A stretch of 22,173 nucleotides of DNA, taken from positions 1 to 22,173 of the forward strand of contig JAJRWI010000005.1 of the NCBI GenBank assembly GCA_024276825.1, in the 5' to 3' direction. Shown here piece after piece: positions 2,366-5,906 of the stretch. This stretch comes from an archaeon (GTDB lineage: Archaea > Asgardarchaeota > Thorarchaeia > Thorarchaeales > Thorarchaeaceae). The first letter of the stretch is position 1. Every line of letters begins with the position of its first letter. Position numbers and translations under genes: made by a program. The notes beneath the pieces are model-generated. The model was not told the DNA's origin, did no database searches, and saw nothing but the letters and a program-made list of their open reading frames with translations.

Positions 2366-2713
2366 TTATTCGTCTTCTTTAAATCCTGCAACTGTTGGCA
2401 TCGGCGGTCCATATTCTTCAACATATTGTGCGACCTTTAATGCTTTTTTCAACCACTTGATCATTTCCTCTATTTGTTCAGACTCCAGAAGACAGGAATA
2501 TAGAGTATGGTGAGTGAGTTCAAAGACATCATCCTCATCTTCATAGTCTTCCTCATCCAGTTCATCTTCGTCCATGACATAAACAACCAATGATAACTCA
2601 GGGAGGTCGTACTTAATGTCAAGCATGAAGAAGATATTTGTCCCATCGGTTTCCTCGATTGTGAGTTGCTCGGGGATCCTTGGCATTGGTGGTCTCTTTT
2701 TCTTCTTTGGCAT
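2366..2713 (-). CDS. Small hypothetical protein with basic N-terminus (MPKKKKRPP) and acidic tract (DEDELDEEDYEDEDD)
   Basis: Open frame 2366..2734. The ATG at 2713 is preceded by a well-spaced GGTGA Shine-Dalgarno site (gtggtgaaaatcATG) and is preferred over the TTG at 2734. Confidence 0.7.
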   Translation of the reverse strand: MPKKKKRPPMPRIPEQLTIEETDGTNIFFMLDIKYDLPELSLVVYVMDEDELDEEDYEDEDDVFELTHHTLYSCLLESEQIEEMIKWLKKALKVAQYVEEYGPPMPTVAGFKEDE

Positions 2714-2792
2714 GATTTTCACCACATCATTCAATTCACCAACTTGCCTGCATAGAATAAAACTCTATTTCATGTTTATTCAAACATGCAAA

Positions 2793-2906
2793 TGTCCGAT
2801 TCCGGTGATGTTGGGTCTACTTCTGTAAGACAACCACAGTAGCAAAGGCATCATTCGCCTATGATGGTTCTTTCAATTCCCGCGATGTGGGATCTACTTC
2901 TGTAGG
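2793..2906 (-). CRISPR. Orphan mini-CRISPR-like unit: 37-nt repeat, 40-nt spacer, degenerate 37-nt repeat
   Basis: Minus strand: repeat 2906-2870 CCTACAGAAGTAGATCCCACATCGCGGGAATTGAAAG; spacer 2869-2830 AACCATCATAGGCGAATGATGCCTTTGCTACTGTGGTTGT; repeat 2829-2793 CTTACAGAAGTAGACCCAACATCACCGGAATCGGACA (28/37 identical, 77-bp period). The first repeat has the archaeal ATTGAAAG 3' handle and a TCCC/GGGA stem. Confidence 0.65.
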
Positions 2907-2989
2907 GAGCTAGCTGGAATACATAATACAAGAAAACTGTCGATTAGCAATGCATATGATCTATAGCAGGTTGATATTCGCCAAGACTG

Positions 2990-3023
2990 AAAAAAACAAA
3001 TATGAAGAGCCCAGAAGAGGCTC
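2990..3023 (-). terminator. Putative terminator of the 100-aa gene
   Basis: Minus strand GAGCC-TCTTCTG-GGCTC hairpin followed by TTCATATTTGTTTTTTT, just after the stop at 3029. Confidence 0.55.
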
Positions 3024-3028
3024 GGAGT

Positions 3029-3331
3029 TTAGTAGACCTCGCGTGGACTGTGCTGAAGTCTTTCAGGGAGTTGTCCACCGCTTCCTTGAACTTCGAGTTC
3101 GAAGTCGCGACCGTATCTCCCACCGTCCTTACATAGAAAGCCAATCTTGATGATTGAGCGGGCCTGTCGTTCAGCGGCTCTCCGTGTGATCAGTCCAATG
3201 CGGCCAGGCACTGTCATAATCAGCTTTTTCTGGGCCTCATTGATTTCAAGGATAATAGTATCGTCGCTTGCTGTCTTGGTAGTTTCGACAAACTGCGAAG
3301 TGCTCTCATTAAACTCGAGGTATCTTGACAT
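3029..3331 (-). CDS. 100-aa hypothetical protein, possibly a single gelsolin-like domain
   Basis: Clean ORF with GGAGG RBS upstream and a terminator downstream. Pattern SDDTIILEINE..KKLIMTV...GLITRRAAERQARSI...EVQG resembles the gelsolin beta-beta-long helix layout. The fold assignment is inference. Confidence 0.7.
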   Translation of the reverse strand: MSRYLEFNESTSQFVETTKTASDDTIILEINEAQKKLIMTVPGRIGLITRRAAERQARSIIKIGFLCKDGGRYGRDFELEVQGSGGQLPERLQHSPREVY

Positions 3332-3434: not shown

Positions 3435-5906
3435 TTAATTAAGTATTAGAATAAGTGGCGCAATTCTCGAAACCTCTATTGAATCCAATGAAAAGATAGA
3501 ACCATCTTCCAGCACAGAGCCATCGATGCCAATTTGACTGATTTTGCTGCCGAGTAAGTTGGATAGAGTTTCCGAAACATCAATTCCATCTTGAATCTTG
3601 TTCCACTCAATAGCATCATTCGAGCCAGTAGAAATGCCAAGAGAATATAGATCTCGTGAGAATCTGCCTTCAGAGCATTTCGCCTTAGATAAGCACTGAT
3701 CATATTGCTCGAGCTCGTAATACTTGAAAAAGCCACCACCCTGATACTCAGGAACTTGCTTACTAATGCCCTTCTTGTCATAAGCTAGTACATGCTTCAT
3801 TCGTGAGATTACAACGCTGTGAAAATGATCTCCCATCTCAATGCCAATCCACCTTCTACCCAGTTTGTGCGCAACGGCAATAGTGGTTCCTGAGCCCAAG
3901 AAAAAATCCATCACAAGGTCACCCTTAGATGAGGTTGACTCAATGATTCGTTTCAAAAGGACTTCAGAGTTCTCTGTCTTAAAACCCCAGAGAGATGAAT
4001 ATCCTGAGATGTCTGTCCAACAGTTTTCTAAAAGAACAGTTTCTCGTGGGGCCACCCAGTATTGAATCGCATTGCCCCTTCTTCTAACAAATGCTAGTTT
4101 CTTGCCCGTCTTCTCCCAATGCTTTCGAAGTGAGATTCCTGTTGCTTCATGTTCGCGCAGAAAATCTTGATAATTCTCAACAGCCTTCATGGCTTTTTCT
4201 TTTTTCCACATCCATTGCCCTTCAGTGATATTGACTCCAAGGATCTCGTAGCGCATTGTCGGGCGGTCGTATATTTTCTTAAAACTGGACCAATATCCCT
4301 CCCGCTGACGTTTGGTTGGGGACCCCATAAACCCTGAAAAGCTAGAGTTAGGGCTCTTTGAGAACCAATAAATGTTGTCGTAAACCACACCGAGTGACTT
4401 TTGCTCTTTGAACTGATTGAATAGGCCAGCCTTTGAAGATCCCCTTCTAATCACTATTTCATTTCGAAAGTTTTCAGGTCCAAAGGTTTCATTCAGAAGT
4501 AGTCGAACATACATGTTGCCATTATGATCGCATCTGACAAAGATACTCCCATCATGTTCTAGAAACTCCCTTGCCATAACCAGCCGATTTTCAAGTAGAG
4601 TTAGCCAGACAGCATCAGCATAGTTTACATTATACTTGAAGTTAGAATCGGTCCCGAGATTAAACGGAGGGTCGATATAGATCAACTTGACCTGTTCACG
4701 AAACTTTGCAAGAATTGTGTTCAATGCCTGATAGTTCTCTGAATGGATTAGCCAGCCATCAATACTTGAGTCCAGATGGTCAAACAATGCAAGAACGGAT
4801 TGTTTGAAGGCGGCATCAAAGAAGCACGTATCAATCGGTAAATAGCAATATTTAGAATCATCTATATTTCCTTGCATCATAAGCTCGGACACCTGTTCCA
4901 TTTCAGACTCATCGATCAGTCCTAGGCATATCCATTCCTTCACTTGTTCATCAAAGGCAGGTTGTATCGCTAGCGACTTCAATACTTGCTTGCCATTCTC
5001 TTGATTTGCAATTCTGTCAAGTGTGATCACATAGTTGGAGTTCAGTACAAACTTCGGTTTGTTCCAGATTGCAACGAGAAAGTCCTCAAACTGCCCAATG
5101 AACTTGATAATGCTGGTTGCAAGAGATCGAAAGAGCTGAATTCGATGTTCATCATCTAGGTTTGGAGAAATGCCTTCAGAATAGAATCGCGAATATATCC
5201 ATAAACTGAGTTGGTCATTCAGGAACTCTTGAGCATTCTTATGGATGAAGTATTCAGCAGTCCGTTGTCTCTTAAATGCTTTAAAGACAGATTCGAGATC
5301 ACTCTTATCTAGGAAAATTCCGTGTTCATTCAGAGTGCTACAGATTCCTTCAAGGTCAGTCTTCCTACGTGATGAGTACGAAACCTCGAAGACAATCTCA
5401 TCGGAAGTCACGCTCTTTAAGCTGAAGTTTAAGTGCTTCTTTTCATTCCTGCTTTTATGCCTCATATCACTTACATCGAATAATATTGTAAATGAGATAT
5501 CTTCCTTAGAGTAGCGTATGGTGGAGCTACGCCAGAGCTTGTCGGTTTTCACATAATAGAGTGATTTTGTAGTCCATATTAACGAAACCTCTTTGGTTGA
5601 ATCATTCAAAAATATAGGAGGTTTGCTATCCTTCGAGCCATCATAATGGATGCTGCCTGTTATTGAAAAGTGGGCCTGAAAAAAATCAAAAACATCGCTA
5701 TAGATAATCTGCTTATTGGAGTCATCAATACAGTTCGAAGAGAGAAACTTGGAAAGAGTCATCTTCAGGGCATTTCTGAAGAAGGACTCCTTCACTTTCA
5801 CAAGATTCACGAAGCCTGATTTACCTTCTATTTGAACACCTGTGAACACCCTGACCAATTGATTAACTAGCTGTTCCTCGGCTTCGGTAAGAGAGGCGGC
5901 GTTCAT
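3435..5906 (-). CDS. Site-specific amino-DNA methyltransferase, beta class (type III R-M Mod-like)
   Basis: Catalytic motif IV IYIDPPFN precedes SAM-binding motif I MDFFLGSGTT. Also AVAHKLGRRWIGIEMG, GGGFFKYYELEQY and HSENYQAL, typical of long Mod-like methyltransferases. Confidence 0.9.
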   Translation of the reverse strand: MNAASLTEAEEQLVNQLVRVFTGVQIEGKSGFVNLVKVKESFFRNALKMTLSKFLSSNCIDDSNKQIIYSDVFDFFQAHFSITGSIHYDGSKDSKPPIFLNDSTKEVSLIWTTKSLYYVKTDKLWRSSTIRYSKEDISFTILFDVSDMRHKSRNEKKHLNFSLKSVTSDEIVFEVSYSSRRKTDLEGICSTLNEHGIFLDKSDLESVFKAFKRQRTAEYFIHKNAQEFLNDQLSLWIYSRFYSEGISPNLDDEHRIQLFRSLATSIIKFIGQFEDFLVAIWNKPKFVLNSNYVITLDRIANQENGKQVLKSLAIQPAFDEQVKEWICLGLIDESEMEQVSELMMQGNIDDSKYCYLPIDTCFFDAAFKQSVLALFDHLDSSIDGWLIHSENYQALNTILAKFREQVKLIYIDPPFNLGTDSNFKYNVNYADAVWLTLLENRLVMAREFLEHDGSIFVRCDHNGNMYVRLLLNETFGPENFRNEIVIRRGSSKAGLFNQFKEQKSLGVVYDNIYWFSKSPNSSFSGFMGSPTKRQREGYWSSFKKIYDRPTMRYEILGVNITEGQWMWKKEKAMKAVENYQDFLREHEATGISLRKHWEKTGKKLAFVRRRGNAIQYWVAPRETVLLENCWTDISGYSSLWGFKTENSEVLLKRIIESTSSKGDLVMDFFLGSGTTIAVAHKLGRRWIGIEMGDHFHSVVISRMKHVLAYDKKGISKQVPEYQGGGFFKYYELEQYDQCLSKAKCSEGRFSRDLYSLGISTGSNDAIEWNKIQDGIDVSETLSNLLGSKISQIGIDGSVLEDGSIFSLDSIEVSRIAPLILILN

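Follow-up and report, generated by a model that had tools for sequence, protein, structure and literature searches.

A leaderless CRISPR repeat-spacer-repeat unit in a Thorarchaeales genome, probably the stranded end of an array

The window studied here, the 22,173-nt contig JAJRWI010000005.1 of assembly GCA_024276825.1, has a lone CRISPR-like unit of repeat, spacer and repeat on its minus strand. We consider it probable that the unit is a leaderless array-end remnant from a repeat family associated with type I-D (and III-D) systems. It would comprise the last intact repeat, the oldest spacer and the decayed terminal repeat of an array, stranded in a lineage-specific insert of ~0.9 kb beside a gene of mobile-element type. 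The points that favor this are the identity of the repeat, the lack of a leader, of a target and of conservation, and the insert itself. The initial annotation preferred a crRNA-like regulator, and it was its own alternative, a dead array remnant, that turned out to fit best. The fragment could be left over from a host array or could have been brought by a mobile element. The features that enter the argument are these, in window coordinates.

2023–2365, no strand: remainder of the insert, AT-rich (36% GC), no gene remnant recognized
2366–2725, minus strand: small acidic gene, 119 aa as called or 115 aa from the ATG at 2713, pI 4.35
2771–2788, no strand: 7-bp inverted repeat 4 nt past repeat 2, a candidate transcript end or operator
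2793–2829, minus strand: repeat 2, a decayed repeat of terminal type, stem broken and handle lost
2830–2869, minus strand: spacer, 40 nt, self-folding
2870–2906, minus strand: repeat 1, 37 nt, 4-bp stem and 8-nt handle intact
2907–2990, minus strand: upstream gap, without similarity to the family leader and without a TATA element at −96 to −100
2991–3023, minus strand: hairpin and T-tract at the end of the upstream core gene, kept in two relatives and marking where the variable site begins on the left
3029–3331, minus strand: flanking core gene, 100 aa, no Pfam family, outside the insert

The unit and its cognate repeat

The arrangement first read from the letters is confirmed. Repeat 1 runs on the minus strand from 2906 to 2870 and is followed by a 40-nt spacer and then by repeat 2, which is identical to repeat 1 at 28/37 positions. 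Comparison with the genome's full arrays, which the initial annotation had proposed, finds a cognate in array B, a long array that occupies one end of contig C3 with at least 8 repeats, all identical, and matches repeat 1 at 31/37 positions. The per-site chance probability is about 1e-9 for the match between the window repeats and 9e-13 for the match to the array-B repeat. Array B itself (L001:1-570) has a full leader and lies directly after iscU/iscS, with no cas genes near on the leader side.

The mismatches of repeat 1 to the array-B repeat are at positions 1–4, 20 and 23, all six outside the stem and handle, with a probability of 0.023 that this happened by chance. Repeat 1 folds with a 4-bp stem, positions 15–18 pairing with 26–29, and then has the 8-nt handle, the stem-then-8-nt-tail geometry that is cut by Cas6d in type I-D repeats (PMC10212523). 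Repeat 2 retains its 5′ half, keeps only 2/4 of the stem pairs and is changed in 4/8 of the handle bases. Of the 9 differences between the two window repeats, 8 fall on repeat 2, a split of about 1 to 8. Compared with array B, the two window repeats have in common five variants (positions 1, 3, 4, 20 and 23), all of them at positions where the family arrays vary. Because these five are in both repeats, the source was a sister array and not array B itself, and scans of the assembly and of 86 relatives, and exact repeat scans of metagenome, viral and genome contigs, find no array with the exact sister repeat.

The 40-nt spacer is typical for the repeat family, in which spacers are mostly 36–41 nt, and it contains a 6-bp hairpin spanning spacer positions 4–21. 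A third repeat was sought on both sides of the unit and none was found, the best candidates having 19 and 24 mismatches. Among the large repeat families in the window, the unit is the sole direct repeat at array spacing, and an Rfam search gave nothing near threshold.

CRISPR-Cas genes in the genome and its relatives

The initial statement that there are no cas genes holds for the window, which is a 22-kb contig, but not for the genome (G000, 2.94 Mb and 98% complete), where a type I-D operon is found on another contig, C11. This supplies the Cas6d/Cascade genes that had been postulated to be encoded elsewhere. The operon contains cas10d, cas7d, cas5d, cas3d and cas6, with cas1, cas2 and cas4 opposite, cas1 being truncated by the contig end. 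The cas6 and cas7d genes were identified by NCBIfam/PADLOC; the Pfam families RAMP, DevR and Cas6_C had no matches in the genome although both genes are there. A tblastn search with the proteins of the relative G078 found no type III genes in the genome. The array adjoining the C11 operon has a 37-nt repeat that differs from the window repeat; the second array type of the genome, array A, is on contigs C22 and C11. The window repeat may be processed by the C11 Cas6d. As a side observation, the genome has two repeat types and one detected cas6. Between cas10d and the array-A leader on C11 (L003) are two genes of unknown function, 507 and 485 aa, the first having helix-turn-helix matches, a paralog on contig C4, and a homolog beside an array in the relative G008.

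Long arrays of the array-B repeat family are found in 10/86 relatives. In G008 they border type I-D genes and in G078 type III-D genes; frequently they are far from cas genes. Hence the earlier suggestion of a crRNA loaded in trans is possible to this extent: the unit is CRISPR-derived, the genome has a cognate array and encodes Cas6d/Cascade, and cleavage of repeat 1 looks feasible.

The leader and the decay of array ends

Where the upstream DNA is visible, 14/16 of the family arrays have two upstream blocks: one, a TATA element, at −96 to −100, the other near −45. The ~80 bp of AT-rich DNA upstream of the unit had been called a leader, but it is not a CRISPR leader. Its values on two leader profiles are −6.2 and −7.3, where true leaders, scored leave-one-out, range from 8 to 28 and from 7 to 19. 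Those scores are background, being reached by 22% and 72%, respectively, of AT-rich windows of the genome. Position −97 of the unit would land inside the terminator of the upstream gene. The AT-richness itself stands in a modest degree, with 39% GC at 2907–3028 versus 43.6% for the genome. A cryptic promoter might nevertheless be present upstream of the unit.

Decay of the last repeat, mainly in its 3′ part, is seen in 12/15 of the family arrays with a visible end, while the penultimate repeat is intact or nearly so, and one terminal repeat from G021 has two of the same 5′ changes as the unit. A closer parallel is found in G014 (C124, L113:1374-1485), where a leaderless two-repeat unit has behind it ~200 bp copied, at about 85% identity, from the trailer of the main array, which is 1.2 kb away. 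It indicates that array ends get duplicated and stranded in this repeat family. The same genome has, in a housekeeping region, a one-spacer array of the family with its leader intact (C123, L089:5668-5777).

Compared with known orphan array ends, namely the G014 unit (L113) and the Francisella V-A-negative and type III remnant repeats (10.1101/2023.03.03.530964), the window unit is alike in having a repeat of a cognate family, a decayed last repeat, a spacer of normal length, no leader, and no conserved position or target. It differs in that its source array is not found and in that it adjoins a gene of mobile-element type and not a recognizable lost cas locus.

Some points speak against the remnant. 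The sparing of the stem and handle by the six repeat-1 differences, and the falling of 8/9 inter-repeat differences on repeat 2, would equally be expected if selection had acted to preserve a processed guide. Regulatory mini-arrays are equally leaderless. The array with the exact sister repeat was not found in the assembly or the collections scanned. Regulatory mini-arrays also have the decayed second repeat (10.1101/2023.03.03.530964), so shape alone is not decisive, and it falls to target, position and conservation to decide.

As an array end without a leader, the unit would be unable to take up spacers. If it were transcribed by read-through or from a cryptic promoter, the host Cas6d may cut repeat 1 and so yield one guide, whose 3′ end would be ragged because repeat 2 has lost its stem. 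Such a guide, having no partner in the host genome, would be idle now or would guard only against an element absent from databases. Judging by sequence, the unit appears to have no current function, since it has neither a target nor conservation. As a remnant it carries little weight, being another case of how, in these archaea, arrays of this family are dispersed, copied and lost at a distance from cas genes.

The insert behind the core gene

The unit lies in a lineage-specific insert of ~0.9 kb, from about 2030 to 2990, at a variable site behind a core-gene terminator. In G002, of the same genus, the stop of the core gene is ~110 bp from the stop of the helicase gene, and there is no unit, no small gene and no Mod. 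The repeats are absent from 29 orthologous loci. A sister contig (L120) with a 93% identical core gene and an upstream Mod homolog aligns up to the terminator (about 2990) and then diverges. Repeat 1 is absent from the 153 nt of that contig past the core-gene stop, where the contig ends, so it is excluded from this position only. Looking for conservation in relatives, as had been advised, therefore finds the unit missing in G002, in the 29 loci and on the sister contig.

The initial annotation placed the unit between an SF2 helicase and an orphan Mod methyltransferase, but the gene directly upstream is the 100-aa core gene at 3029–3331, which is found in 78/87 genomes of the order. Nearly all genomes of the order have this protein as well as a paralog of it, and the site behind the gene varies in gene content. 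The Mod gene (3435–5906) encodes a type III-like methyltransferase (PADLOC E = 8e-202) and is situated between two otherwise adjacent core genes; it is found on the sister contig L120 and is absent from G002 and the other relatives examined. At the AT-rich end of the insert, there is a perfect 18-bp palindrome at 2132–2149, and a second palindrome of 14 bp overlaps it (2132–2155), which may be an operator or an element end.

The small acidic gene and its homologs

Next to the unit in the insert is the small acidic gene, which has no homologs in the 86 relatives. It is nonetheless real, with 12 metagenome homologs at 30–44% identity. All 12 homologs with context share one gene string on short unbinned contigs (loci L090-L095, L101-L111): a large unknown gene, a 172-aa protein, a 141-aa protein matching phrog_1485 (E = 2e-8), the homolog, a 110-aa protein, one of about 50 aa, and a Dam-like D12 methyltransferase. 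The string has archaeal-type promoter and ribosome-binding signals. It probably belongs to an undescribed family of archaeal viruses or plasmids. Its neighbor genes have no counterparts in the genome with the unit, its contigs have no match in IMG/VR, and searches of genome contigs for the homologs, and of 301 Asgard genomes for one neighbor gene, were empty. This gene is the more useful by-product of the analysis: through it the host is connected to what is probably a family of archaeal mobile elements, not described before and so far seen only on short contigs from metagenomes.

The predicted structure (pLDDT 77.5) has four strands and a helix. Its matches are weak and PC4/PUR-like, with Z = 5.3–5.5 overall, including a phage T5 protein (PDB ID: 4bg7; E = 0.01, TM 0.47/0.60) and, tied with PUR and PC4 proteins, AcrIIA22 (PDB ID: 7jta; Z = 5.5 over 53 residues, rmsd 4.6). 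AcrIIA22 has been described as PC4-like (PMC8545432). The PC4-like topology, a weak match from a predicted model, would be a common phage fold that by itself indicates no function. Atlas feature matches were all under 0.9.

These results bear on an alternative that we regard as unlikely, in which the unit is a virus- or plasmid-borne mini-array, working or recently so, that borrows the host type I-D Cascade. The RNA would be a guide against a rival element or a decoy for Cas6d/Cas7d, and the neighbor protein a candidate anti-CRISPR or single-strand nucleic-acid-binding protein. The unit and the small gene are in one lineage-specific insert, and the homologs with context are all in the one virus-like string; the protein is small and acidic, and its fold resembles PC4-like proteins including those of phage T5 and AcrIIA22. 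Also, viruses are known to cluster repeat decoys with acr genes (PMC10651486), and leaderless phage mini-arrays are known (PMC6858448). Set against this, 0/17 homolog loci carry a CRISPR repeat, the best candidates having 14–19 mismatches; the homologs share the acidic character and have the look of normal components of a replication/modification string, on contigs without a match in IMG/VR; and the fold scores (Z under 8) are within the range of common arrangements. Nor is there a protospacer in the collections searched.

The mini-arrays of Saccharolobus viruses SPV1/SPV2 (PMC6858448) and of Bathyarchaeia viruses (PMC10541130) resemble the unit in having one spacer, no nearby cas genes, a host-related repeat, and a neighbor gene with virus-like relatives. 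The unit, however, has no host-like promoter leader, its repeats are not identical to those of the host, there is no recognizable virus genome around it, and no rival element is matched in the collections searched, where Asgard viruses are thinly sampled. Similarly, the Racr/SRU RNA anti-CRISPRs (PMC10651486) and AcrIIA22 (PMC8545432) are comparable in that a repeat mimic and a small acidic gene are neighbors in a variable island, with the PC4-like topology as predicted, but the unit has two repeats at array spacing and not a solitary one, the protein has no sequence similarity to any Acr and a weak fold match, and the linkage is seen once only. A more specific version, which we hold to be distinctly doubtful, would make the insert a domesticated anti-CRISPR cassette, derived from a mobile element of Asgard archaea, with a repeat-spacer RNA occupying Cas6d/Cas7d and a small acidic PC4-fold protein that acts against type I-D immunity. 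If true, this RNA-plus-protein pair would be the first such candidate for an Asgard host.

Targets of the spacer

A further alternative is that the unit is a trans-acting regulator of the CreA/CreR type, with its guide steering the type I-D Cascade to a host promoter (that of the cas operon, the downstream gene or another) and repressing it. The shape agrees with this, since handle and stem are kept in the first repeat and the 5′ half in the second (10.1101/2023.03.10.532045), and the genome encodes a type I-D Cascade and cas6. The question then is whether the spacer has a target. Seed matching was done genome-wide with every sixth base allowed to be unpaired, with and without a GTN PAM; this PAM was taken from other type I-D systems (PMC10212523). 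An attempt to deduce one from 267 real spacers failed, giving matches that were fragments of 17–19 nt only.

The longest seed run in the genome is 10, versus 10–13 in shuffles, so nothing exceeds the null. There are no GTN-flanked sites with a seed run of at least 9, which is fewer than in most shuffles. The regions upstream of cas10d, the two accessory genes, the small gene, the core gene and Mod, and both array leaders have matches at null level (P from 0.09 to 1.0); the region upstream of cas1 is unassembled and so is not part of this set. The host promoters thus give no match above shuffled controls with or without the PAM, where the initial annotation had advised looking for one.

The top seed match in the genome, at spacer positions 1–5, 7–11, 14–17 and 19, is on contig C35, where a 30-nt direct repeat immediately precedes a cupin gene. 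In both copies of the repeat, 15 of the 16 first pairing positions agree with the spacer. This would speak for a regulator, but a site of equal quality in this genome is found for 25/267 unrelated real spacers (9%) and for 25/300 shuffles. The flank is CAT/CAC and not GTN, and the repeat is not conserved, its lone match in G002 falling within a coding gene. We record it as an unexplained coincidence. The C35 site is, in its own right, a second orphan repeat-spacer-repeat (C35:41277-41372, L096:2278-2373), with 30-nt repeats differing by 1 mismatch and a 36-nt spacer, upstream of the cupin gene; this genome and 86 relatives have no further copies of the repeat.

Other candidate targets were rejected. 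The proline-rich mini-gene region beside the I-D locus has a best seed run of 5 (null P = 0.8), and the start of the small gene has an 8-nt match at spacer positions 14–21 only, with no seed. In the distant Asgard genome G197, the spacer has a 20/23 match, no better than controls, that drops to 25/40 over the full 40 nt. A protospacer search of metagenome contigs, viral contigs, 400 Asgard genomes, phages and plasmids, in which Asgard viruses are thinly sampled, gave no match.

Position and conservation point the same way as the target, as the unit is flanked by syntenic non-cas genes. CreA/CreR and regulatory mini-arrays (10.1101/2023.03.10.532045; 10.1101/2023.03.03.530964) do resemble it in having a good first repeat, a degraded second one, no acquisition leader and a cognate class 1 effector. 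Although the unit could act in the manner of a crRNA gene, it does not belong to CreA/CreR, because it lies outside a cas locus, has no PAM-flanked partial seed match to a cas or toxin promoter, and is not conserved. The role in regulation or toxin control first assigned to it also lacks any linkage of the repeat to homologs of the downstream gene, and we rate a regulator as improbable. Were either a decoy or a regulator to prove true, crRNA-like control or RNA anti-CRISPRs would extend to Asgard type I-D, and would do so from outside the cas locus.

Other origins for the two repeats

The five variants common to both repeats are also what would result if Cas1-Cas2 had put one spacer off-target at an existing repeat-like site, duplicating the site, with the copies drifting afterward. 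The presence of cas1, cas2 and cas4, and the lack of a leader, agree with such a neo-array. However, a 31/37 match is not a chance chromosomal site, so the repeat must have arrived first, and drift after duplication should strike both copies alike where the observed split is about 1 to 8. We consider this origin very improbable. A chance duplication unrelated to CRISPR, for which only the lack of cas genes in the window speaks, has a negligible probability and is refuted: an array repeat of the same genome matches at 31/37 positions and is correctly oriented, and the spacer has a length usual for the family.

A short plus-strand hairpin in each repeat recalls the Cas12a repeat and was judged to be chance, as the flanking motif is missing and a Cas12a search was empty, though its control also gave nothing. 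The 5′ changes that the two repeats have in common (2871–2906 and 2793–2829) make a new 4-bp hairpin, positions 2–5 with 10–13; it has no counterpart in the array-B repeat and may reflect palindrome correction or chance.
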